From an uncultured Acidimicrobiales bacterium (GTDB taxonomy: Bacteria > Actinomycetota > Acidimicrobiia > Acidimicrobiales > SHLQ01), in NCBI GenBank assembly GCA_937922235.1, contig CAKZVC010000033.1, forward strand, positions 7,274 to 71,273: DNA of 64,000 nt, given 5' to 3'. Shown piece after piece: positions 32,278 to 43,755 of the stretch. How positions within the stretch are numbered: position 1 is the stretch's first letter; each line of letters opens with the position of its first letter. The notes under the pieces were generated by a model. It was not told the origin of the DNA. It did no database searches and saw nothing but the letters and a program-made list of their open reading frames with translations. The translations under genes and the position numbers were made by a program.

Positions 32278-34662
32278 GTGATCAGCGAGAGTCTTGCGGG
32301 AAAACGAATCGCCGTGACCGGATCGACCGGCTTCTTGGGCACAGCGCTCATCGAACGCCTCGTTCGTTCGGTCCCCGACTGCGAACTCATCTTGTTGGTA
32401 CGCCCTGGACGACGGGGCGCCCAAGCTCGCGTCACGCGAGACGTCCTCAAGAACGACGCCTTCAACGGCCTGCGCAATGAGCTTGGCAAGGACGCGTTTG
32501 CCGAGCTGTGCGAACGTCGGGTTACCGCCGTGGCGGGCGATGTCGGAACCGATGGGCTTGGGCTCTCCGACGACGACCTCAAGCTCTGGCTTAGCGCCGA
32601 TGTGATCATCCACTCCGCAGCGACGGTGTCGTTCGACTCGCCGCTCGATACCGCCGTCGAGGTCAACCTGCTCGGCCCCCAGCGCATTGCGAACCTGTGC
32701 AATGCACACGGCGTCACCCCTCACCTTGTTGCGGTGTCGACGTGTTACGTGGCCGGCAGCCGCCGCGGCTCCGCCCCCGAACAGCTCGTCGACGAAAGCC
32801 CATACTTCGTCGACGTGAACTGGCGACGCGAGGTCGAAGCGGCGCGCCGCAGCCGCCTCGACGAAGAGACGGCAAGCCGTCAACCCGCTCGCCTCACCCA
32901 GTTCCGAGCCGAAGCACAGCGCGAACTCGGCGCTGTCGGAACCCCAGCACTCGCGGCGAAGACCGAGACGATTCGCCAAGCGTGGGTCACGACCCAAATG
33001 GTCGAGAACGGTCGAGCTCGCGCCTCGTCGCTTGGTTTCCCCGACGCCTACGCCTACACCAAAGCCCTCGGTGAGCTCGCCGTGGTCGAGACCCGCGGCG
33101 ACGTGCCGATTTCGATCGTGCGTCCGTCGATCATCGAGTCCGCATGGTCCGAACCAGTCGCCGGTTGGATTCGCGGATTCCGCATGGCCGAGCCGGTCAT
33201 CATCTCCTACGCACGCGGGCTGCTCAGCGAGTTCCCCGGCGTCCCCGAAGGTGTCGTCGACGTCATCCCAGTCGACATGGTGGTCGCCGCAATTATCGCC
33301 GTCGCCGCCCGCGGCCCCAAGGACGACGGCCCCGATGTCACCCAGGTCGCGTCGGGCAGCGCCAACCCGCTCCGCTACAAGAACCTCGTCGACTACGCCG
33401 AAGACTGGTTCACACGCAACCCGATCTACGACGAGCTCGGTCAGCCAATCGCTGTTGCGGCATGGCAGTTCCCCGGTCGCGGCCGAGTTGAACGTCAGCT
33501 GGTACGGGCCCGTACCAGCCTTGAACGAGCCGATCAGGTGCTCGAGAAGCTGCCGCTTCGTGGCCGCACCGCCGAGTACGCCATGCAGCTCCAGGCTCGC
33601 AAGGAACTCCTCGACCAGGCGTCGGGCTACGTCGAGCTGTACGGCGCATACGCCGAGTGCGAGGCCTTGTATGGCCTCGACAACTTGCTCGGCCTTTGGG
33701 ACGAGCTCACCCCTGAGGACCAAGCAGCATTCGGCTTCGACCCGCGAGTCATCGACTGGAAGCATTACGTCCAGAACGTGCACCTTCCTTCGGTCGTGCG
33801 CCAGGCTCGCGCGAAGACCACGCCCGGCAAGAAGACCGGCCCAACTCGAAGCACGCGCCTCCGAGCGCAGGTGCTGTCCCCAGACCGCCAACTGGCCGTC
33901 TTCGATCTCGAGAACACGATCATCGCATCGAACGTCGTCACCTCGTTTGCCTGGCTCGCAACTCGCAACCTCTCCCCCAGTGAGCGAATGGTGTTTGCGG
34001 CAAAGGCCTTGTCGCAAGGCCCGGGATGGCTGGCGCTCGACCGCAAAGACCGCAGCGATTTCCTGCGCAGCTTCTACCGCAACTACCGCGGTGCCACCAC
34101 GGCTCAGATCGAAACCGACGCCCAAGAGCTCCTCAGCGACTATCTGCTGTCGAAGTCGTTCCCGGCAGCGATTCGTCGCGTGCGTGAGCACCGGGCGCTC
34201 GGTCATCGCACGTTGTTGATCACTGGAGCGCTCGACTTCGTGATCGAACCGCTCCGCCCGCTGTTCGACGACGTCATTTCTGCCGAAATGAGCCAGGTGA
34301 ACGGCCGCTACACCGGCGGCATGCGATCGGTTCCGCCAACGGCTGAGAACCGCTACCAGGCCCTCGCCGACTTTGCCGAAGCCCACAGTATCGATCTCCG
34401 TGAAGCCGTCGCCTACGCCGACTCCTCGAGCGATCTTCCGATGCTCGAAGCGGTCGGCTTCCCGGTTGCGGTAAACCCCGAAACCAAACTGGCCGCCATT
34501 GCCCGCAAGCGCGGCTGGCTTGTCGAAGACTTCCAGAAGCAGTCTGGCGCTCCCGCCCGACGACTTCCCATTGCGCCTCGAACAGGCGCCCGATCAGAAC
34601 CACTGCTGAGCTCGATGATGAATCGCGGCTCGGGTCTCGCCAAGGAGAAGACTCGCCGATGA
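32278..34662 (+). CDS. fatty acyl-CoA reductase-like (NAD_binding_4/Sterile) domain fused to HAD-IB hydrolase
   Basis: TGSTGFLG, YAYTKALGE, IVRPSII, DVIPVD; C-terminal VFDLENTII and YADSSSDLPML..VNP. Confidence 0.85.
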   Translation: MISESLAGKRIAVTGSTGFLGTALIERLVRSVPDCELILLVRPGRRGAQARVTRDVLKNDAFNGLRNELGKDAFAELCERRVTAVAGDVGTDGLGLSDDDLKLWLSADVIIHSAATVSFDSPLDTAVEVNLLGPQRIANLCNAHGVTPHLVAVSTCYVAGSRRGSAPEQLVDESPYFVDVNWRREVEAARRSRLDEETASRQPARLTQFRAEAQRELGAVGTPALAAKTETIRQAWVTTQMVENGRARASSLGFPDAYAYTKALGELAVVETRGDVPISIVRPSIIESAWSEPVAGWIRGFRMAEPVIISYARGLLSEFPGVPEGVVDVIPVDMVVAAIIAVAARGPKDDGPDVTQVASGSANPLRYKNLVDYAEDWFTRNPIYDELGQPIAVAAWQFPGRGRVERQLVRARTSLERADQVLEKLPLRGRTAEYAMQLQARKELLDQASGYVELYGAYAECEALYGLDNLLGLWDELTPEDQAAFGFDPRVIDWKHYVQNVHLPSVVRQARAKTTPGKKTGPTRSTRLRAQVLSPDRQLAVFDLENTIIASNVVTSFAWLATRNLSPSERMVFAAKALSQGPGWLALDRKDRSDFLRSFYRNYRGATTAQIETDAQELLSDYLLSKSFPAAIRRVREHRALGHRTLLITGALDFVIEPLRPLFDDVISAEMSQVNGRYTGGMRSVPPTAENRYQALADFAEAHSIDLREAVAYADSSSDLPMLEAVGFPVAVNPETKLAAIARKRGWLVEDFQKQSGAPARRLPIAPRTGARSEPLLSSMMNRGSGLAKEKTRR

Positions 34663-36266
34663 GCCCTCGTAAAGCTCCACGTCCAGGCCTCGTGCTAGAC
34701 GTAGATGCCTCCACCCCACCCGTCTTGTTCCACCACGGTGAGAACTTCCGGATGGAGAAGCTGCCGGTTGGCCGGTCGCGCATCATCTACCCAGCCGAGC
34801 CACTGCGCGGCCTTGAAGATCCCGATCAGGCCATCCGTGATGCGCTCGACAACCCGATCGACTCCGAGCCGCTCAAGGCGCTTATGTCCCCCGACATGAA
34901 GCTCACGATCGCGTTCGACGACATCAGCTTGCCACTGCCTCCCATGCGCAAGCCCGACATCCGCCAACGCGTCATCGAAGCTGTGCTCGATATCGCCGCT
35001 GAGGTCGGCGTCGACGACGTACACATCATCGCGGCACTTGCGCTCCACCGCCGGATGACCGAGGACGAGCTACGCCACGCGGTCGGCGACCGGGTCTACG
35101 ACGCCTTCGCGCCAAGCGGCCGCCTCTACAACCACGACGCCGAAGACCCCGACGGCATGACGCACTTGGGCAAGACCGAGCACGGCGAAGAGGTGCAGAT
35201 CTCCAAGCGTGCAGTCGACAGCGACCTGACCGTCTACGTCAACATCAACCTCGTGTCGATGGATGGCGGCCATAAGAGCACCGCAACCGGGCTCTCGGGT
35301 TACACGGCGCTGCGCCATCATCACAACGTCGACACGATGCAGAAGTCGAAGTCGTTCATGGATCCGCCGAACTCCGAGCTCCATACGAAGAACTGGCGCC
35401 AGGGTGACGTCATCCGCAGTGCTGGCGTGAAGATCTTCCAGATCGAGACGACCATCAACAACAACACGTTCGGCGAAACCGGCCCTCTCTCGATGCTGCA
35501 GAAGCGTGAGTGGGAATGGACCGGGCGAGACCGGGCCAAGTTCCTCGCCATGCAGGGCGGGCTCAACTACATGACGCCGTCCGCTCGGCGCAAGGTGTTC
35601 CACAACTGGAAGGCTCCGTACGAGCTGACCTCAGTCCAAGCCGGCGAGATCGAAGCCGTACACAAGGTCACCACCGAAAACACCTTTGCCCAGCACCTCG
35701 TGCCGGTCGAGGGGCAGACCGACATCATGACGATGGGCTTGCCGTACATCAGCCCGTACAACGTCAACTCGGTCATGAACCCGATCCTGGTGGCGGTCCT
35801 CGGGCTCGGCTACTTCTTCAACCTGTACCGCGGCAAGCCGCTGGTCCGCGAGGGTGGCGTTCTCATCATGAGCCACCCAACACCGTGGGACTTCAACCCG
35901 GTCCACCACCCCAGCTACATCGACTTCTTCGAGCAGGTGCTCGCCGAGACGACCGATCCTCACGAGATCGAGCGCAAGTACGAAAAGCAGTACGCAGAAG
36001 ACGAGTGGTACCGCCACCTGTATCGCACCAGTTACGCCTACCACGGCGTCCACCCGTTCTACATGTGGTACTGGTGCAGCCACGCGCTGCAGCATCTTGG
36101 CCAGGTCATCATTGTCGGCGGCGACCCGAAGGCCGTTCGTCGTCTCGGGTTCCGACCCGCATCAACGCTCCAGGATGCACTTGAGATGGCCACGGACACC
36201 GTCGGGCCGCAGCCGACGATCACCCACTACCACAACCCGCCAATGCTGATGGCGGACGTGAAGTAG
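34659..36266 (+). CDS. lactate racemase (LarA/DUF2088)-like domain protein
   Basis: ALDNPIDSEPL, TIAFDDIS, ALALHRRMT, NHDAED, DGGHKS typical of the LarA N-domain. Confidence 0.75.
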   Translation: MSPRKAPRPGLVLDVDASTPPVLFHHGENFRMEKLPVGRSRIIYPAEPLRGLEDPDQAIRDALDNPIDSEPLKALMSPDMKLTIAFDDISLPLPPMRKPDIRQRVIEAVLDIAAEVGVDDVHIIAALALHRRMTEDELRHAVGDRVYDAFAPSGRLYNHDAEDPDGMTHLGKTEHGEEVQISKRAVDSDLTVYVNINLVSMDGGHKSTATGLSGYTALRHHHNVDTMQKSKSFMDPPNSELHTKNWRQGDVIRSAGVKIFQIETTINNNTFGETGPLSMLQKREWEWTGRDRAKFLAMQGGLNYMTPSARRKVFHNWKAPYELTSVQAGEIEAVHKVTTENTFAQHLVPVEGQTDIMTMGLPYISPYNVNSVMNPILVAVLGLGYFFNLYRGKPLVREGGVLIMSHPTPWDFNPVHHPSYIDFFEQVLAETTDPHEIERKYEKQYAEDEWYRHLYRTSYAYHGVHPFYMWYWCSHALQHLGQVIIVGGDPKAVRRLGFRPASTLQDALEMATDTVGPQPTITHYHNPPMLMADVK

Positions 36267-36271
36267 GCGAG

Positions 36272-37252
36272 ATGACTGCTGTATCGAACTACCGAGCAAA
36301 GATGTCTCAGCGTCTTGCCGGCACCGAAGTTCCTCTCGTTGGCCGGCTTCGCCGACCGTTGCAAGCACTTCCGTTCCCGTACACGGCGCCATCGGTGCCG
36401 CAGTCTGTCGAGATCCCCGAAAAGCGCGGTGTGACTGGCACGGACTTCCCCACTGATTGGGCCCGCACCGAACCGGCTCGACGCACTCGGGCGGTGCTAA
36501 TCGATGGCGTTGTTCGCCCGGTGATGAGCGGACTAGCTCAGCCGACCCGCCGCGGCACCGACCGTTTGTCAGACCTCACCGGCCCCGCAGTGTTCGCGGC
36601 CAACCACCACAGCCACGTCGACACCCCACTGCTCCTGAGCTCGCTACCGACTCCCTGGCGCCACCGTGCTGTTGTCGGCGCCGCTGCTGATTACTTCTTT
36701 GGCACCCGAATCACCGGCACCCTTTCGGCGTTAGTCATCGGCGCCATTCCCATCGACAGGACGAAGATCAGTCGGACGTCCACCGACTTGGCGCGTGACC
36801 TGATCAGCGAGGGATGGTCACTCGTCGTGTTCCCTGAAGGCGGACGCAGCCCGGATGGCTGGGGTCAGCCGTTCCGCGGCGGGGCAGCCTTCATCGCCCA
36901 GCGCACCAACGTGCCAGTGGTCCCTGTCCACATCGAAGGCACGGGTCGGATTCTGCGCAAGGGCAAAAGCACCCCGACCCGCAGTCGCACGACAATCACC
37001 TTCGGTGAACCGCTGTACTGCCGCGACGACGAAGATGCACGAGCGTTCAACACTCGGATCGAAGCCCGAGTGGCCGAGCTCGCCGACGAAGCGATGACGA
37101 ACTGGTGGGATGCGCGCAAGCGTGCCCATGATCAGGGGACGCCATCGCTTACCGGCCCGCAGACCGCAAGCTGGCGACGAGTATGGGAACTCGATGCCGA
37201 CGGCCCAGAGCGACGCTCATCGAGGTCGACGTGGCCCAAGGGCAAGGCCTAA
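36272..37252 (+). CDS. PlsC-like lysophospholipid acyltransferase
   Basis: NHHSHVD (HxxxxD), GAAADYFF, VFPEGGRS. Confidence 0.88.
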   Translation: MTAVSNYRAKMSQRLAGTEVPLVGRLRRPLQALPFPYTAPSVPQSVEIPEKRGVTGTDFPTDWARTEPARRTRAVLIDGVVRPVMSGLAQPTRRGTDRLSDLTGPAVFAANHHSHVDTPLLLSSLPTPWRHRAVVGAAADYFFGTRITGTLSALVIGAIPIDRTKISRTSTDLARDLISEGWSLVVFPEGGRSPDGWGQPFRGGAAFIAQRTNVPVVPVHIEGTGRILRKGKSTPTRSRTTITFGEPLYCRDDEDARAFNTRIEARVAELADEAMTNWWDARKRAHDQGTPSLTGPQTASWRRVWELDADGPERRSSRSTWPKGKA

Positions 37253-37266
37253 TCACGCGGTTCTTC

Positions 37267-37290
37267 ATTTCGTTGACTTCTCAACGAAAT
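37267..37290 (+). terminator. hairpin after the lipid operon
   Basis: ATTTCGTTGA-CTTC-TCAACGAAAT perfect 10-bp stem. Confidence 0.55.
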
Positions 37291-37299
37291 TGACTCGCT

Positions 37300-37317
37300 G
37301 GGACCCATGTGGGACCC
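37300..37317. promoter_or_regulatory. GGGACC direct repeat with 11-bp period (candidate SARP/BTAD operator)
   Basis: GGGACCC-ATGT-GGGACCC; the same arrangement occurs at 40582-40598. Confidence 0.4.
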
Positions 37318-37334
37318 GGTATCAGTAGAACGAT

Positions 37335-37445
37335 GCACATGGACGGCGGTTCATGTCGCTCGGTGTGAGCGGCTGCTCTCCTTGGGCATCCAGGTATTGA
37401 AGTTCCTCAACAGACTTCCCTCTGCCTGGATGCCCAGGAGGGCAA
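37335..37445 (+). ncRNA. candidate structured small RNA
   Basis: Two short hairpins, then a ~20-bp stem (37374-37394 / 37425-37444) with a C/U-rich loop; no family recognised; strand inferred. Confidence 0.3.
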
Positions 37446-37477
37446 CACGGTCTCGACGCTGAGGGCACACCCATGTC

Positions 37478-37529
37478 GGATCTCTGCCCCTTTTCAGACC
37501 TGACAGGTCGGTTTTGGGGCAGAAATCTC
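37478..37529. repeat. REP-like hairpin, family C, copy 2
   Basis: TCTGCCCC-TTTTCAGACCTGACAGGTCGGTTTT-GGGGCAGA. Confidence 0.55.
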
Positions 37530-37705
37530 GTAGGCCGTTGCGCGGCGCTATTGAGCGATTATTGATCGCCAGTCTTTGCTAAATGCTATCCTCACTTCTG
37601 GGCATGTATTTTGGTAGACCCCAGCAGGTGATCCTGTTGTGGACTACAGCCGTTCGGGTTGCTCGAACTATTCTCACGACGGATGGGTAGAAAGACGGGA
37701 CACGC

Positions 37706-40450
37706 GTGAAGGTTGGGGACGGTCAGCAATGGCGAGAGCGCATATCGTCACTTGTTTTCTCCAGCGACCATCCAACGGTCATCGCCGCCCCTCCAGGCTT
37801 CGGAGTTTCAACCCTCGCGGCCTATCTGGGATCATCGGTTCACCCGACACCAGCATCGGTAGTCGACCTACACGCTGTCGACGTCGCCGAGCTCTCAATC
37901 GATGCACTCCGACAACAGCACGTGGTGTTCGTGGCGCGGGAGATACCGGACCTCACGAAGATCCCTGGGGCTCAGCTGATCAGTCATTCGCAGCTTCGGT
38001 TCACCGAAGACGAGGCAATCGAGGTCGCCGAAGCTCACGGCGTTGACGCATCGGTTGCCCGATCTATCCATTTGTTCACTGCAGGCTGGCCAGGCTATTT
38101 CAACGCCTGCCTCGACGTGCTTTCCCAGGACGCACGAACCACAAGTTCGCCTCCCATCACCGCCGACGATGCCTACGATCGACTTCACAAGGGACCGCAC
38201 CTGCGCGCCCTCATCAGCACGTGTACCGCCGATCTCACCCCGACCGATCACTCCCAGATTGCGCAACTCACTCACTTCACCAAGATCTCCCCCGGACTGG
38301 TCGAGGCTCTGCTCGGCCCGAAAGGACTCAGTCGAATTCAACGATCCGGTCTGCCGATCGTCGAAACCCAACCCGGTTGGTACGAGATCCTCGAGCCCGT
38401 GCGAGGCGTTCTCCGATCGAGCTCCACACTCGATGAGCAAACCGCTCGCAAGCTTGCACCCGAGCTCATTGCTGAGGCCGGCATGGTTGCCGGCGCCCGA
38501 ATTCTCCTGGCCGCGGGTCAGCCAGCCGCCGCGGCGACTGCCCTCCGGTCGGTACCCGTGCACGAACTCGACGAAGGCAGCCAGCCGACACTTCTGTCGC
38601 TGCTACGAACCGTCCTCGATAGCGAGAAGGACGACGGTTCGCTTCGACTTCGTCTGGCGAGGGTGTACCACAACCATGGCGATCTCGTGTCGCTTCGACG
38701 GTCACTCGAAGATGCCACCGTTGCGGCGATCGATCAGCTTCGCCCCGATCTTGAGCTCGAGGCTCAATCCGAGCTGTTGTTACTCGACCTCGACATTGTC
38801 GACCATGAGATCGTTCGCGACAGGCTCGAGATCCTCCAGTCGAAGGCCAAAGACCACGCAAACCAGTCATCACTCATTCGTCTTCGCGAAGTGGCACTCA
38901 TGCTCGAGTCCGAACGTGAGGAGCTCGACCACATCTACTCAGCTGCGTCCCGACTCGAATCTGTTGCGAACGATTGGGAGTTGATTGGCGAGAACGCCCG
39001 TGCTGCAGCCACCCTGCGCATGCTTGCGAGCCGCCCCCTCTTCCACCTTGGCCGCCACGCCAAAGGTGTCGAAGTTGCCAAACGTGCCTGCGAGCTTTCG
39101 CAGCAACACCCGCAAGGGCATCTCAAGAGTCTTCTTCTTCTCGCCCGCGAGCTTGCGATGACTGCCGACCACGAGAGCTTTCTGCCAATCGCCGATCGGG
39201 TCAGCGAGCTCGCTCCTGCTTCCGGCTTGGCTTGGATCGACGCGTACGACAACTGGGCGCGCATGGTCATGGCAGGGTTCGCTCTCGACGACCAAGGCGT
39301 GATGGCGCACCAGCGGCGGGGCGAATCGCTCATGCCGCGCGAACTGTTAGAGCACGGCACCGGTGCAATCTTCTTTTCCGATGCTGCGACCGCCGCCGCA
39401 ACAGCGGGTGAACTCGAGTCCGCCTCGACGTTCCTTGACCGCGCATTGCAGCGTCGTGCACTTGCACCGCTCGATGTCGGCTGCGCTGAAGTGTTGGTGC
39501 TTGCCTACCGTAGAGATCCGCAATGCAAGGACGCGCTCGAGGTGCTCGCGACGACGACTCCGATCCCCGCAGAACGCAAATGGCGCCTCGACCTTGCCGT
39601 CGAGCTCGCACTCGGCGAGCCGAGTTCTTCGCGTCACGACGAGGCGGTGCAGCACGGACTTGAACGGGTCTATGACTCGACGATTCGAGCATTTGCCGCA
39701 ACCTCTGCCCCCGAAAGCGTGTCGCTGAAGTTGCTGGGCGACTTCGCAGTCCAGCGAGGGTCGCGAAGTATTCCAGTTGCAGGCGGTAAGGCGACCGAGC
39801 TCGTGAAGTTCCTTGGCGTTCGGATGAAAGCCGTGCCCGCCGACGTCGTCATCGACTACCTGTGGGGCAATGTCAGCACCGACGTTGGCCTTCGCCGACT
39901 GAAGAACGTCGTGAGCCGGGCCCGGGCCAGCCTGGGCCAGGACGCAATCGAACGTCGCGGTCAGACGGTAGGACTTGGCGCCCACGTGACATCGGATCTT
40001 GCTGAGTTGCGTACGCTTCTTCGCCATTTGCGAGTCGAACCGAATGACACCACTGCCGCCCGACGCTGTGTCGAGCTGTATGCCGGACCGTTGCTCGAAC
40101 TCGATGTGTATGACGACTGGGTAGCCGCAGAACGTGAGTCGCTCGCAGCAGCGGTGTTGTCGGCGCTTGAGCTAGTGGTCGATGCCGCTGATGCCCCGAG
40201 CGCATGGACGCTCGACGCACTCGCCCGGATTCAACCCAACGACGATCGGCCGTATATGGCTGTCGCGGATCTTGCGGAACGACAACAGGACGCGACAACC
40301 CTCCGACTTGCGCTTGCACAAGTTCGGAGGATCTGTCTTGCCTTGGACCTCGACGTGCCGGCCGGGTATGACCGGCTGCACGCGAGAATTACCGAGCTAG
40401 CCGTGCCAGACGCCGTTGGCGCTTTCGAGGGTTCCGGAGGCAACAGCTGA
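37706..40450 (+). CDS. large regulator: MalT-like degenerate NTPase, helical TPR-like region, C-terminal winged-helix/BTAD
   Basis: IAAPPGFGVSTL, LRFTEDEA, TAGWP; C-terminal LKLLGDFAV, IDYLWG, ELYAGPLL..YDDWVAAERE. Confidence 0.8.
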   Translation: MKVGDGQQWRERISSLVFSSDHPTVIAAPPGFGVSTLAAYLGSSVHPTPASVVDLHAVDVAELSIDALRQQHVVFVAREIPDLTKIPGAQLISHSQLRFTEDEAIEVAEAHGVDASVARSIHLFTAGWPGYFNACLDVLSQDARTTSSPPITADDAYDRLHKGPHLRALISTCTADLTPTDHSQIAQLTHFTKISPGLVEALLGPKGLSRIQRSGLPIVETQPGWYEILEPVRGVLRSSSTLDEQTARKLAPELIAEAGMVAGARILLAAGQPAAAATALRSVPVHELDEGSQPTLLSLLRTVLDSEKDDGSLRLRLARVYHNHGDLVSLRRSLEDATVAAIDQLRPDLELEAQSELLLLDLDIVDHEIVRDRLEILQSKAKDHANQSSLIRLREVALMLESEREELDHIYSAASRLESVANDWELIGENARAAATLRMLASRPLFHLGRHAKGVEVAKRACELSQQHPQGHLKSLLLLARELAMTADHESFLPIADRVSELAPASGLAWIDAYDNWARMVMAGFALDDQGVMAHQRRGESLMPRELLEHGTGAIFFSDAATAAATAGELESASTFLDRALQRRALAPLDVGCAEVLVLAYRRDPQCKDALEVLATTTPIPAERKWRLDLAVELALGEPSSSRHDEAVQHGLERVYDSTIRAFAATSAPESVSLKLLGDFAVQRGSRSIPVAGGKATELVKFLGVRMKAVPADVVIDYLWGNVSTDVGLRRLKNVVSRARASLGQDAIERRGQTVGLGAHVTSDLAELRTLLRHLRVEPNDTTAARRCVELYAGPLLELDVYDDWVAAERESLAAAVLSALELVVDAADAPSAWTLDALARIQPNDDRPYMAVADLAERQQDATTLRLALAQVRRICLALDLDVPAGYDRLHARITELAVPDAVGAFEGSGGNS

Positions 40451-40510
40451 GCCAATAGCGGCTCCGATCATGGTCGACGCAATGAAGATGTATCGCTTGA
40501 AGGTGTGCAT
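40397..40510 (-). CDS. 37-aa secreted peptide precursor (candidate signalling peptide)
   Basis: MHTFKRYIFIASTMIGAAIGSAVASGTLESANGVWHG*; GAAAGGGA SD 6 nt upstream; basic n-region, hydrophobic core, short polar tail. Confidence 0.65.
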   Translation of the reverse strand: MHTFKRYIFIASTMIGAAIGSAVASGTLESANGVWHG

Positions 40511-40581
40511 TGGTGAGTCCCTTTCGTTGAGGTGCTCACAACGAACCAATGCCTCGTCCCACGCTGGTTAGCGATCTCGCA

Positions 40582-40598
40582 GGGACCGCGGAGGGACC
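40582..40598. promoter_or_regulatory. GGGACC direct repeat with 11-bp period upstream of the peptide gene
   Basis: GGGACC-GCGGA-GGGACC about 70 nt upstream of the peptide ATG. Confidence 0.4.
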
Positions 40599-40768
40599 TC
40601 GCTCAGCGCGGTCTTGCCGGCGGGTGCCGAACGGCGACAAATCAACAACGGGGTCTCACCACTGGCGCGCAGCATTGCGCTCGGTGACATCGTCACCGAG
40701 CAAATCCGTTCGAGAACCCATCAGATTTGCTGGGCCCGCAGGGCCGGCCGGATGTGAGAACTGACGGA

Positions 40769-41374
40769 TCAGCTCGTGCCGAGGCACGCTGCGATCGCGT
40801 TTGCCTCGATCGCGTTGCGCCCGAGGCCGAAGTTCGGATCGGCAAACAGGAAGTCTGCCTGTGCCTCAACCAGCACCTCGACGATGCAGCTCGCGTTCGC
40901 GGCCGTTCTCCCCTGACGGCGCAGCGAGGCAACCGCCACTTCGGCTGCGCCATCGTCGACGACGTCGTCGTCGTCATTGTTTGCCAACGCCGACGCAGCG
41001 CTGACCGAGTGTTGTTGGGGTTCCACTACCGACGGCTCGCGCTGAGCTACCCGATCATCGCCAATCGAGGTGCCAAGCACGTCAACGGAGACACATCGAG
41101 CGGTAGCGGCAACAAAAGCGTCGCGACGTTCTTCGGTCCGTTCGAGACGGGGGTCGGCCGCGTCCAACCGATCGAGCGCGATCAACGAATCGGCAATGCA
41201 GGTGGCCTCGGCCTCTGAGACGCCGGTCGTCTGAACGGCAGCGATCGCATCGTCGCGCACGAATTCGTCCGCACAGCTAGCGAGTACAACGATTGCGGGA
41301 ACCACCCAAAGACAGGCCTGTGCGCGCAACGAGATAGGCCGACGCGCAACTCGAGCGAAAACGGACGAACCCAT
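40769..41374 (-). CDS. hypothetical lipoprotein with duplicated A.CI helical motif
   Basis: Lipobox LASC; EAEATCIADSL and ANASCIVEVL repeats. Confidence 0.7.
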   Translation of the reverse strand: MGSSVFARVARRPISLRAQACLWVVPAIVVLASCADEFVRDDAIAAVQTTGVSEAEATCIADSLIALDRLDAADPRLERTEERRDAFVAATARCVSVDVLGTSIGDDRVAQREPSVVEPQQHSVSAASALANNDDDDVVDDGAAEVAVASLRRQGRTAANASCIVEVLVEAQADFLFADPNFGLGRNAIEANAIAACLGTS

Positions 41375-41402
41375 GCGGTGCCAATCGGCATGTACGGCCA
41401 GG

Positions 41403-41419
41403 TATTGAGCGCCCCAATA
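41403..41419. promoter_or_regulatory. candidate LysR-type operator
   Basis: TATTG-N7-CAATA palindrome containing T-N11-A, upstream of the aconitase-LysR operon. Confidence 0.35.
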
Positions 41420-41472
41420 GGGCGCCCCGCACGGCTAGGATGAAGGCGTTTGCCAACCACCTGAGGTATCCC

Positions 41473-43755
41473 GTGGCCGTGTACGCCAACACTCCAATCG
41501 AACTGATCAACGCCGTGTACGGCACGCTCGACGAGCGCCTTGCGAAGGGTCGTGAGCGCCTTGGGCGAGCGTTGACGCTGACCGAGAAGATCCTCATCAA
41601 TCACCTTGACGATGTGGACACCGGCGGCATGGATCGTGGCGTGAGCTACACCGACCTTCGCCCTGACCGGGTCGCCATGCAGGACGCAACCGCGCAGATG
41701 GCCTGGCTCCAGTTCATGACGGCTGGCCTCCCACAAACCGCAGTACCAACCACCACCCATTGCGACCACCTCATCCAGGCCCGTGTCGATGGAAAGACCG
41801 ACCTCGCGGTCGCCGCCGACACCAACAAAGAGGTGTACCAATTCCTCCAGGACGTCAGCGCAAAGTTCGGCGGCGGTTTCTGGGCCCCAGGATCAGGAAT
41901 TATCCACCAGGTCGTACTCGAGAACTACGCCTTCCCGGGCGGCATGATGCTCGGCACCGATAGCCACACACCAAACGCTGGCGGTCTCGGCATGATCGCC
42001 GTTGGCGTGGGCGGCGCCGACGCTGTCGACGTCATGACGGGCTTCCCGTGGAACGTTCGTTGGCCAAAGGCCATCGGCGTGCACCTCACCGGAGAGCTGT
42101 CTGGTTGGGCGGCACCCAAGGACGTCATCTTGAAGGTCGCCGAGATCCTGACCGTCAAGGGCGGCACCGGCGCCATCGTCGAGTACTTCGGACCAGGAGC
42201 CGAGAGCCTGTCAGCAACTGGCAAAGCCACGATCTGCAACATGGGTGCCGAGATCGGCGCGACCACCTCGGTCTTTGCGTACGACGATGCGACGAGCCGC
42301 TACCTCAAGGCCACCGGCCGTGAAGAGATCGACGACGCGGCACGCAACGTTGCCCATCACCTACGTGCCGACGACGAGGTCTACGCCAACCCTGGCGACT
42401 ACTTCGACCAGGTCATCGAGATCGACCTCAACACGCTCGAGCCACTCATCAACGGCCCACACACTCCCGACCTCGCCCGCCCGCTCAGCAAGCTCGGTGC
42501 CGAAGCCGAGCTCAACGGATGGCCGAAGGAAATCTCCGCAGCGCTTATCGGCTCGTGCACGAACTCGTCGTATGAGGACATCAGCCGTGCGGCCTCGATC
42601 GCCCGCGACGCGGCGGCAAAGGGACTGACTGCGAAGGTGCCATTCATGGTCACGCCCGGCTCTGAGGCAACCATGCGGACCATCGAACGCGACGGCTTTC
42701 TCGCCGACCTCGAAGCCATCGGCGGCGTCGTGCTCGCCAACGCCTGCGGTCCGTGCATTGGTCAGTGGAAGCGCGATGATCGCGAAGGCAGCGAGGGCAC
42801 CGCAAACAGCATCGTCACCTCGTACAACCGCAACTTCCCGAAGCGCAACGATGGCGACGGCGCAACGCTCGCCTTTGTGACCTCACCGGAAACCACCGTG
42901 GCGCTCGCTCTTGCTGGCCGCCTCGACTTCGACCCGAAGACCGACACGCTCACCAACGACGCTGGCGACGAGGTCATGCTCACAGTCGGCGACGCCATCG
43001 AGCTCCCAAGCGCTGGCTTTGAAGACGGCACGTCGATGTTTATCGCTCCCCCAGAGGACGCCTCGGGCATCGAAGTCTCCGTGTCTCCTGACTCCGACCG
43101 CCTCCAGCTCCTCACCCCATTCCCGAAGTGGGATGGGAACGACTACCTCGAGCTGCCGATCCTTGGCAAAGGCATGGGCAAGGTCACAACCGACCACATC
43201 TCGATGGCCGGTCCATGGCTCAAGTACCGCGGCCACCTCGAGAACATCTCGGGCAACCTCTACCTCGGAGTTGTCAACGCCTACACCGGCGAGAGCGAGC
43301 TGGCTGTCGACCCGAGCGATGGTCAGACCAAGAGCTACCCAAACATCGCCAAGAGCTTGCACGAGAAGGGCATCAACTGGGTATTCATCGGTGACGAGAA
43401 CGTCGGCGAAGGTTCCAGCCGCGAGCACGCCGCAATGGAGCCACGCTTTCGTGGATGCCATGCAGTGTTCGCCAAGTCGTTCGCTCGAATCCACGAGACC
43501 AACCTCAAGAAGCAGGGTGTGTTGGCGTTGACCTTTGCTGACCCCGACTTCTGGCTCGCTATCGAAGAGGGCGACACCATCTCGATCACCGGTCTCTCTG
43601 AGCTCGCCCCGGGCAAACAGGTTCAGTGTGTACTGCACAAGGCCGACGGCGAAAGCATCGAGTTCCTCACGAACCAGACGCTCTCTCAGGACCAGATCGA
43701 ATGGTTCCACGCTGGTTCAGCGCTCAACTTGATCCGCGAACAGACGGGCGGCTGA
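41473..43755 (+). CDS. acnA: aconitate hydratase (mitochondrial-type)
   Basis: LRPDRVAMQDATAQMA, GTDSHTPN, IGSCTNSSYED, ANACGPCIGQW, GSSREHAA. Confidence 0.92.
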   Translation: MAVYANTPIELINAVYGTLDERLAKGRERLGRALTLTEKILINHLDDVDTGGMDRGVSYTDLRPDRVAMQDATAQMAWLQFMTAGLPQTAVPTTTHCDHLIQARVDGKTDLAVAADTNKEVYQFLQDVSAKFGGGFWAPGSGIIHQVVLENYAFPGGMMLGTDSHTPNAGGLGMIAVGVGGADAVDVMTGFPWNVRWPKAIGVHLTGELSGWAAPKDVILKVAEILTVKGGTGAIVEYFGPGAESLSATGKATICNMGAEIGATTSVFAYDDATSRYLKATGREEIDDAARNVAHHLRADDEVYANPGDYFDQVIEIDLNTLEPLINGPHTPDLARPLSKLGAEAELNGWPKEISAALIGSCTNSSYEDISRAASIARDAAAKGLTAKVPFMVTPGSEATMRTIERDGFLADLEAIGGVVLANACGPCIGQWKRDDREGSEGTANSIVTSYNRNFPKRNDGDGATLAFVTSPETTVALALAGRLDFDPKTDTLTNDAGDEVMLTVGDAIELPSAGFEDGTSMFIAPPEDASGIEVSVSPDSDRLQLLTPFPKWDGNDYLELPILGKGMGKVTTDHISMAGPWLKYRGHLENISGNLYLGVVNAYTGESELAVDPSDGQTKSYPNIAKSLHEKGINWVFIGDENVGEGSSREHAAMEPRFRGCHAVFAKSFARIHETNLKKQGVLALTFADPDFWLAIEEGDTISITGLSELAPGKQVQCVLHKADGESIEFLTNQTLSQDQIEWFHAGSALNLIREQTGG

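Follow-up and report, generated by a model that had tools for sequence, protein, structure and literature searches.

A small-peptide gene conserved beside a STAND-SARP regulator in Acidimicrobiales, and a possible system for peptide signalling of a type reported to date from Firmicutes alone

What is the role of a 37-residue reading frame that runs head-on into the end of a large regulator gene? The question is raised by a window of 64,000 nucleotides (the whole stretch of DNA that was analyzed) from an uncultured Acidimicrobiales bacterium (assembly GCA_937922235.1, contig CAKZVC010000033.1). In this high-GC window, a 914-aa regulator open reading frame (ORF) on the plus strand (37706-40450) and a 37-aa ORF on the minus strand (40510-40397) overlap tail to tail by 54 nt, that is, 18 codons. 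An earlier note on the window had drawn attention to this two-gene cassette as a candidate peptide-signalling system, and its coordinates were reproduced here. Five DNA metagenome runs from two studies, marine or aquatic, contain the sequence, and no RNA run is listed for it. Sequence comparison confirms that the small ORF represents a real conserved gene family, and the conserved cassette to which it belongs may serve peptide signalling of the sort that has until now been described from Firmicutes alone.

The small ORF is called as a protein in a public collection. A protein homologue search with the peptide returned this identical 37-aa protein alone, the word index being unable to reach relatives of so short a sequence. 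A tblastn search of the peptide against regulator loci gave full-length convergent matches in the orthologues G020, G022, and G009, together with a weaker match in the genome's own paralogue on contig C57, and the orthologous locus in G041 carries a peptide ORF too. In all, there are six copies of this GxWxG type, each exactly 37 aa long, with an ATG start and the ending G-x-W-x-G. The five other copies (four orthologues and the own paralogue) have an AAGG element at the place of the Shine-Dalgarno (SD)-like sequence of the window ORF; the SD claimed earlier is present, at moderate strength instead of the "strong" one that had been proposed. The pattern of substitution is that of a protein-coding sequence, with dN/dS values of 0.07 to 0.48 over 10 orthologue pairs and 26, 10, and 29 of the 37 columns variable at the first, second, and third codon position, respectively, so that the second position varies least. 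A hidden Markov model of ten peptides, run against 92,832 six-frame segments of the genome, gave two matches, one beside each regulator paralogue, both of them training rows. As a control, a loose filter was applied to the genome's 418 long ORFs, and 44 of them proved to be accompanied by a convergent small ORF of hydrophobic character; adding the tail motif described below leaves 2 of 418, which equals the count of regulator paralogues, an agreement in number only.

The association with the regulator extends well beyond the closest relatives. Convergent ORFs of 33 to 37 aa accompany the distant regulators of G021, G019, G014, and G039, which are ~30% identical to that of the window. Among 401 sampled genomes of the order, 21 have a family member at E ≤ 1e-60, and 17 further loci from these searches were examined, gene calls in the relatives being our own ORF scans. 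Seven of the 17 (G572, G603, G672, G700, G729, G636, and G704) have a convergent small ORF of like build; for two (G559 and G435) there is too little downstream sequence for an assessment. One more peptide-bearing locus, L070, lies on a metagenome contig that was reached by a DNA pattern combining the repeats with an invariant 16-mer (both discussed below). A search of genome contigs with alignment A4 returned four known orthologous loci in metagenome-assembled genomes; the same alignment returned no loci from metagenome contigs, and the query P0002 alone none from genome contigs. In total, the small ORF is found at 18 of the 26 assessable regulator loci, with eight lacking it and two not assessable, and these loci cover several Acidimicrobiales families. 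Homologues without an adjacent ORF of this kind had been named in the earlier note as grounds for giving up the idea; a convergent ORF of the same family at 18 of 26 loci leaves it standing. The convergent orientation is retained in all 18 peptide-bearing loci. In a quick tree of 25 regulators (G014, G472, and L070 were left out), all 16 peptide-linked rows fall on one side, one label change being needed, and the six peptide-less rows group together with the two unassessable ones (SH-aLRT 93). The tree contains one very long branch outlier, G699, whose stop-to-stop ORF may be wrong. Collectively, these comparisons strongly support that the small gene is tied one-to-one to the regulator.

Small hydrophobic ORFs are common, as the loose-filter count of 44 in 418 illustrates, and the two transcripts would overlap in the window. 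The small ORF might encode a hydrophobic peptide resembling type I toxins, or it might be an antisense frame that arose by chance, and the convergent overlap would then give antisense control of the regulator mRNA. We consider this very improbable. Length, start codon, SD, and C-terminal motif are conserved family-wide, dN/dS stays below 0.5, and the small ORF has its own operator-bearing promoter. Moreover, the coding overlap is not kept: in other loci, the position of the small ORF's stop relative to that of the regulator ranges between 3 nt inside and 237 nt past it. Within the overlap, the conserved frame is that of the small ORF, the regulator tail "FEGS" being the antisense of "GTLE". 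The overlap falls in the tail of the regulator and costs it nothing, because residues 901-914 are disordered and unconserved.

Across the family, the encoded precursors are 33 to 55 aa long and consist of an M-x-x-x-K/R(K/R) start, a stretch that is apolar and rich in Ala, Gly, Ser, Thr, and Val, and then a tail with the shared C-terminal motif A-x-G-x-(W/F/Y/H)-x-x. The last seven residues are the best conserved (mean pairwise identity 0.36, versus 0.19 and 0.22 in two other 7-residue windows). In the 17 peptides compared, position -7 is Ala in 14, position -5 is Gly in 14, and position -3 is aromatic in every one (Trp in 11, Phe in 4, Tyr and His in 1 each), while positions -6, -4, -2, and -1 are variable. 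The 13-residue tail of the window peptide ends A-N-G-V-W-H-G, and the earlier proposal that the active part lies near NGVWHG is consistent with this conservation pattern. An A-x-A-like site stands ~10 to 13 residues from the end in most peptides, reading AVA/SGTLESANGVWHG in that of the window; in G672, G700, and G729, what looks like a classical signal peptide is followed by a linker with Pro and only then by the tail. Between close relatives, some of the changes concentrate in the tail. The G021 and G019 peptides differ by two amino acids, T30N and N32T, both within the last four residues and each requiring two base changes, beside three synonymous changes, and the G009 and L070 peptides differ at 3 of the first 23 residues versus ~8 of the last 14 by manual count.

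A positively charged N-terminus followed by a transmembrane-like apolar run would also suit a product that stays in the cell or its membrane and modulates the regulator directly, by membrane tethering, by sequestration, or as a co-activator or anti-activator, with no extracellular step. There is precedent in that MalT-type regulators are under the control of protein partners (the title of structure 8bob speaks of "negative regulation of the maltose system"). However, an N-in topology leaves ~6 residues facing the cytoplasm, with the conserved motif at the opposite, C-terminal end, and the Pro-rich linkers that follow the apolar part in G672, G700, and G729 resemble secreted pro-regions. An intracellular or membrane modulator is, in our judgement, improbable.

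What kind of protein would such a peptide meet? The full-length regulator has no match in Pfam or NCBIfam at E ≤ 0.01, and cutting it in pieces yielded a weak TPR_14 match as the sole Pfam hit. Relatives are numerous: an exhaustive search returned 919 at E ≤ 0.001, mostly of 900 to 1000 aa. A 40-member family profile matched MalT in the PDB (8bob_C, profile positions 8-332, E 5.7e-25), and the Pfam matches among the 40 relatives comprise BTAD (8 of 40), nSTAND_NTPase5 (8), AAA_22 (6), AAA_16 (4), Trans_reg_C (2), and several TPR families. The AlphaFold model of the regulator has a predicted local distance difference test (pLDDT) value of 92.0 and a pTM of 0.71. Its best Foldseek match is 6mfv_A, a STAND protein with TPR (E 8.6e-9), with MalT also matched, and the C-terminal part matches the SARP domain of AfsR (8hvr_I and 8k60_I, TMt 0.59 over 247-249 columns). 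In the model, residues ~241-667 are all-helical with pLDDT above 90, giving the helical arm and repeat sensor expected after the NTPase, and an OmpR-type winged helix-turn-helix (wHTH) followed by a BTA domain, the arrangement that characterizes SARPs, occupies residues ~668-900, although the regulator itself stays below the Pfam thresholds. The family profile and the fold matches thus point to an NTPase-sensor-SARP architecture, and they bear out the earlier description of a MalT-like/TPR/BTAD regulator.

One feature departs from the usual STAND pattern. At the Walker A motif, GxxxxGK[ST], the regulator reads PPGFGVST, in which the glycines are retained and the lysine is replaced by valine. 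The lysine is also gone in the orthologues G020, G041, G022, and G009 (GFGVS/A/G across the regulator and these four), the motif is degenerate in G039 and G704, and it is absent from the truncated paralogue described below, whereas it is intact (GFGKT/S) in eight peptide-linked relatives (G021, G019, G572, G603, G672, G700, G729, and G636). As modelled, and with strong support from the profile, the regulator is STAND-type: a MalT-like NTPase whose P-loop is dead precedes a superhelix of TPR-like build, and DNA binding and activation fall to a SARP domain at the C-terminus. Compared with MalT and the LAL/STAND activators, the N-terminal NTPase and arm domains correspond in profile and fold, and in both cases a helical sensor precedes a C-terminal DNA-binding domain. 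The differences are that this DNA-binding domain is of SARP type and not a LuxR-type HTH, that the P-loop lysine is replaced in the clade of this regulator, and that the candidate ligand is a gene-encoded peptide where that of MalT is a sugar.

The link between the two genes is strengthened by the DNA upstream of each. The earlier note had reported GGGACC repeats with an 11-bp period at 37300 and 40582, and both are exact. GGGACC-N5-GGGACC occurs twice only in the whole 4,395,145-base assembly, at these two operators, and the count is the same when GGTACC-type variants on either strand are allowed; in shuffled windows, 0.02 exact pairs are expected, and at least two were seen in 0 of 100 shuffles. 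Operator 1 is kept in five of five orthologues in the same orientation as GGGACC-N5-GG(G/T)ACC(C). Eight bp after the repeats follows TAGAAC, TAAAAC, TATAAC, TAGACA, or GACACT, and then, after 5 to 7 bp, the invariant 16-mer ATGGACGGCGGTTCAT. On the peptide side, the orthologues have two GG(T/G)(A/C)CC hexamers 11 to 12 bp apart upstream of the small ORF and, after an 8-bp gap from the heptamer, GCTAAC, GCTGAC, GCTCAC, or ACTAAC. A third hexamer, inverted relative to the two repeats, is at the same position in five of five orthologues (GGGACG in four, GGTACC in one) and in the paralogue (GGTACG), and it is also present in G603 and G672. The hexamer is concentrated ahead of the peptide gene: over 17 loci, the 170 nt preceding the small ORF have 13.15 copies per kb, compared with 1.02 per kb elsewhere in these loci and 0.35 per kb across the genome. 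Of the 16 peptide-linked loci, 10 have a strict pair beside the small ORF and 8 have one upstream of the regulator; the six peptide-less loci have no GG(G/T)ACC-type pair and one CGGACG-type match.

A scan for the sigma-70 consensus found no promoters. SARP-dependent promoters, as described in PMC10936776, have direct repeats one helical turn apart (11-bp or 22-bp spacing), and 8 bp separate the 3′ repeat from the -10 element. This geometry is found at both window sites and in the orthologues, with -10 elements that are themselves predicted from the sequence, and its conservation supports the SARP-type interpretation of the repeats that had been offered. The GG(G/T)ACC pairs with 11-bp spacing are hence likely to be operators of the regulator positioned over the -35 region of two promoters. 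Since the probable operator of the regulator is present on both promoters, the cassette is probably auto-activated. That the module and its relation to the operators are real we regard as highly probable. The opposite orientation of the two repeat pairs relative to their putative transcripts, raised as a caveat in the earlier note, is largely disarmed by the near-palindromic nature of the hexamer (GGGACCC and GGGTCCC differ in the central base alone) and by the palindrome GGTACC that many relatives carry.

A regulator acting on a small neighbouring gene recalls AfsR and AfsS of Streptomyces, and the same data fit a scheme in which the regulator senses another cue, such as a metabolite or phosphorylation, and turns on both its own gene and that of the peptide, the latter being an output without feedback. 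This output could be bioactive after secretion, or it could be a micro-protein that spans the membrane once and acts through its conserved C-terminal motif on the outer side of that membrane. SARPs typically activate adjacent production genes. According to the account in PMC10936776, AfsR (SARP, NOD, TPR) activates afsS via a 22-bp box of two 11-bp repeats, and the window locus has the same three domain types (SARP, STAND/NOD NTPase, TPR; the C-terminal 249 columns match 8hvr_I at TMt 0.59), the same operator geometry, with two direct repeats of 11-bp period over the -35 region, and a neighbouring small target gene. Moreover, the long apolar run seen in 14 of 17 peptides suits a membrane anchor, and an extracellular C-terminus would be invisible to a cytoplasmic regulator without re-import. 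The correspondence is not complete, however. The domain order is permuted, NTPase-TPR-SARP being the reverse of the SARP-NOD-TPR order of AfsR, and Walker A has no lysine. The small product has the look of an exported or membrane-bound peptide, unlike AfsS or any other known family (there is no Pfam or NCBIfam match and no usable Protein Atlas look-alike), and the regulator's own promoter has the same box as that of the small gene. In addition, one-to-one peptide/regulator paralogues, operator variants of their own, and tails with a conserved scaffold and variable positions form the pattern of a ligand and its receptor, though this pattern is compatible with a peptide output as well. On balance, we view this AfsR/AfsS-like scheme as the main competitor of the signalling loop set out below and as only a little less probable than that loop.

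The paralogues just mentioned are those of a second, diverged cassette in the same genome, on contig C57 at ~32959-35750 (loci L016, L032, and L045). Its regulator has 775 aa, is 36% identical to that of the window, lacks the P-loop region, and has a shortened C-terminus. Its peptide has 37 aa and ends ATGTWHG, and its operator reads CGTACC-N5-CGTACC with an inverted GGTACG in the same layout as in the window. Judged from these sequences, the operator of the paralogue has changed together with its regulator and peptide.

How might such a cassette work as a signalling system? In the proposed loop, the 37-aa pre-peptide would be exported by Sec and then cut, and its C-terminal part would build up outside the cell. 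An oligopeptide permease would take this part back up, and the re-imported peptide would bind the TPR domain of the regulator. The peptide-bound regulator would then switch on SARP-mediated activation at both promoters, with a positive-feedback, density-dependent circuit as the outcome. Speaking for this loop are the tail with its conserved scaffold and variable positions, the apparent orthogonality of the paralogous cassettes, and the tail-centred changes in the G021/G019 and G009/L070 pairs. The genome has three OppA-type binding-protein genes, which are permissive for re-import and nothing more. By analogy with RRNPP logic, built here from non-homologous parts, the full loop of export, re-import of the C-terminal part, and sensing by the TPR domain is a serious candidate that we hold tentatively.

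The proposed system would work most like the RRNPP systems, in particular PlcR/PapR and the convergent group III SHP/Rgg pairs. The window cassette shares several traits with the PlcR/PapR pair of the Bacillus cereus group: a cytoplasmic TPR-type protein, here a candidate receptor, that is itself the transcription factor; an adjacent small gene whose product starts like a signal peptide and is conserved toward its C-terminus; and an operator ahead of each of the two genes. In streptococci, the group III shp genes are downstream of rgg and convergent with it, as PMC3679016 describes them, which is the arrangement of the window. The precursors are also alike in being short, with a basic N-terminus and a hydrophobic stretch, the active part of SHP being C-terminal (PMC3679016). 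The differences are as clear. The window regulator has no Rgg homology, and the precursors of its family are longer (33-55 aa), with an A-x-A-like site and a polar/aromatic tail where the SHP tail is all-hydrophobic. More generally, the candidate receptor in the window has a STAND NTPase and a C-terminal SARP (wHTH + BTA) in place of the N-terminal XRE-type HTH of RRNPP receptors, and its host belongs to the Actinomycetota (Acidimicrobiales). No RRNPP family (Rap/Rgg/NprR/PlcR/PrgX) is among the Pfam and NCBIfam matches of the regulator and its 40 relatives, and no RRNPP chain is among the six matches of the PDB profile search or the Foldseek matches listed. Hence, as the receptor is not homologous, the window system is not an RRNPP member.

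RRNPP, defined generally as peptide signalling via a cytoplasmic receptor (PMC10075063), is described as a Firmicutes trait, and PMC10075063 describes actinobacterial signals as typically small molecules. Among the papers listed in searches on Acidimicrobiia and Actinomycetota, and on STAND or BTAD proteins with peptide pheromones, none deals with such a system. The cassette could thus represent an undescribed class of cytoplasmic-receptor peptide quorum sensing in Actinomycetota, characterized by an A-x-G-x-W-x-x pheromone, a STAND-SARP receptor with a dead P-loop, GG(G/T)ACC auto-activation, and orthogonal paralogous cassettes, a proposal that we put forward tentatively and with some reservation.

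Several observations weigh against the signalling loop, beginning with the fit of the AfsR/AfsS-like scheme to the same data. The peptide was not detected at 8 of the 17 further loci (G699, G519, G570, G472, G397, G348, G092, and G196). In 14 of 17 peptides, the apolar run is uninterrupted over 18 to 28 residues, which exceeds the usual length in a signal peptide and would suit the transmembrane helix of an uncleaved membrane micro-protein. The A-x-A sites were read by eye, and many alternative -3/-1 sites are present. Nor is the tail-centred divergence uniform: the G020 and G041 peptides differ in the signal part alone, and those of G700 and G729 mostly there. With the Walker A motif degenerate, the nucleotide switch typical of STAND proteins may be out of action. 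Moreover, the assembly, which is 87.5% complete, has no further copy of the strict operator, so that no output regulon is visible.

A last such point concerns the rate at which the cassette evolves. Relative to the three closest genomes, the flanking proteins are highly conserved (LarA-like, 97-98% identity; aconitase, 95-96%; LysR, 95%; acyltransferase, 87-89%), whereas the regulator is 59-60%, the peptide 51-59%, and the adjoining 201-aa ORF 40-54% identical; at the DNA level, the flanks are 80.6-84.0% and the cassette 64-68% identical. The cassette is, by these comparisons, fast evolving, and divergence alone is no proof of diversifying selection. Because the flanking DNA is itself ~82% identical, the 59-60% identity of the regulator need not mean pherotype-like diversification and may be ordinary fast evolution. 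"Pherotype-like hypervariability" was accordingly dropped as a strong argument.

If the signalling loop is true, it would be an independent invention of RRNPP logic, on a STAND-SARP scaffold, in uncultured marine Acidimicrobiales. The large SARP/STAND regulators, whose ligands are mostly unknown, would gain a candidate gene-encoded ligand, and the cassette would offer a compact orthogonal triplet of peptide, receptor, and operator. Even under the AfsR/AfsS-like scheme, there would be a new small-protein family with a dedicated regulator and operator. The features of the cassette are collected in Table 1.

Table 1. Positions of cassette features in the window
Feature	Position	Strand	Remarks
Operator 1, GGGACC-N5-GGGACC direct repeats, 11-bp period	37300..37316	+	Upstream of the regulator's leader; exact match
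-10-like hexamer TAGAAC	37326..37331	+	8 bp after heptamer GGGACCC; putative promoter
Invariant 16-mer ATGGACGGCGGTTCAT, imperfect palindrome	37339..37354	+	At predicted transcript start
Long putative 5′ leader with stem-loops (~370 nt)	37339..37705	+	Alignment with orthologues
914-aa regulator	37706..40450	+	MalT-like STAND NTPase ~1-240; TPR-like helical sensor ~241-667; SARP (wHTH + BTA) ~668-900; disordered tail 901-914
37-aa small ORF	40397..40510	-	ATG 40510; TAG stop 40397-40399; residues 1-24 signal-peptide-like or transmembrane-like (40439-40510)
Conserved tail of small ORF, residues 25-37, SGTLESANGVWHG	40400-40438	-	Sequence alignment
SD-like AAGGGA	40518..40523	-	~7 nt upstream of the small ORF's ATG
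Stem-loop in 5′ untranslated region, TTCGTTG ... CAACGAA	40524..40547	-	Just upstream of the SD; read from sequence; partly conserved in orthologues
Third hexamer GGGACG, inverted versus the two repeats	40555..40560	-	Near predicted transcription start of small ORF
-10-like element GCTAAC/TAACCA	40565..40572	-	8 bp after heptamer GGTCCCT; putative
Operator 2, same hexamer pair	40582..40598	-	Precedes the ATG of the small ORF by 72 nt; ~-24 to -40 relative to the putative promoter

The putative leader of the regulator mRNA begins with the 16-mer ATGGACGGCGGTTCAT, which is invariant in five of five orthologues, unique in the genome, and present in the metagenome locus L070, and which can form a 6-bp hairpin. 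RNAalifold, applied to four leader sequences, predicted 24 pairs, three of them with compensatory changes; one pair has a CG to UA compensation in two of the four sequences. A scan of 36900-41500 against Rfam gave one chance-level match alone (E 0.98), and the leader has no Rfam family. At ~37381-37439, moreover, a strong inverted repeat of 17 bp can be read from the sequence. The leader could thus be an RNA element with a regulatory role in its own right.

On the minus strand after operator 1 (37268-37300), the sequence reads TTTCGTTGA-gaag-TCAACGAAA-ATG, which is similar to the hairpin and the TCAACGAAAGG leader that precede the small ORF (40511-40548). The 39-aa ORF that follows this ATG (37268-37149, minus strand) is not hydrophobic and overlaps the end of the acyltransferase gene. 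The stretch is possibly, on this resemblance, a remnant of a duplication.

Beyond the peptide gene, no third conserved gene was found across 10 loci. The ORFs there belong to unrelated families (methyltransferase, FAD monooxygenase, DinB_2, PALP, nitroreductase, EamA, or none), and no dedicated modification or export enzyme was found among them; these ORFs were chosen by eye on length and G+C content at third codon positions (GC3), so gene calls in this region are rough. As the genes past the peptide gene are mutually unrelated across loci, the unit is the two-gene pair. In the window, the position is taken by the 201-aa ORF (40769-41374, minus strand), which is on the same strand as the peptide gene and closely precedes operator 2. 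This ORF has a lipoprotein-type signal, with VVLASC at residues 29-34, no Pfam or NCBIfam match, and, by eye, two Cys-containing half-repeats in its mature part. Because it is absent beside the module in other families, it is probably outside the module. The aconitase that follows (41440-43755, plus strand) scores as the mitochondrial type (equivalog TIGR01340, 1041.6 bits versus a cut-off of 825.35). On the other side, a plus-strand gene row (32278-37252), conserved and syntenic in three relatives, comprises a fused thioester-reductase/SDR and HAD-IB phosphatase of 794 aa, a LarA-family NPN-dependent hydroxyacid isomerase (LarAH14/15/16, 881.5 bits), and the acyltransferase.

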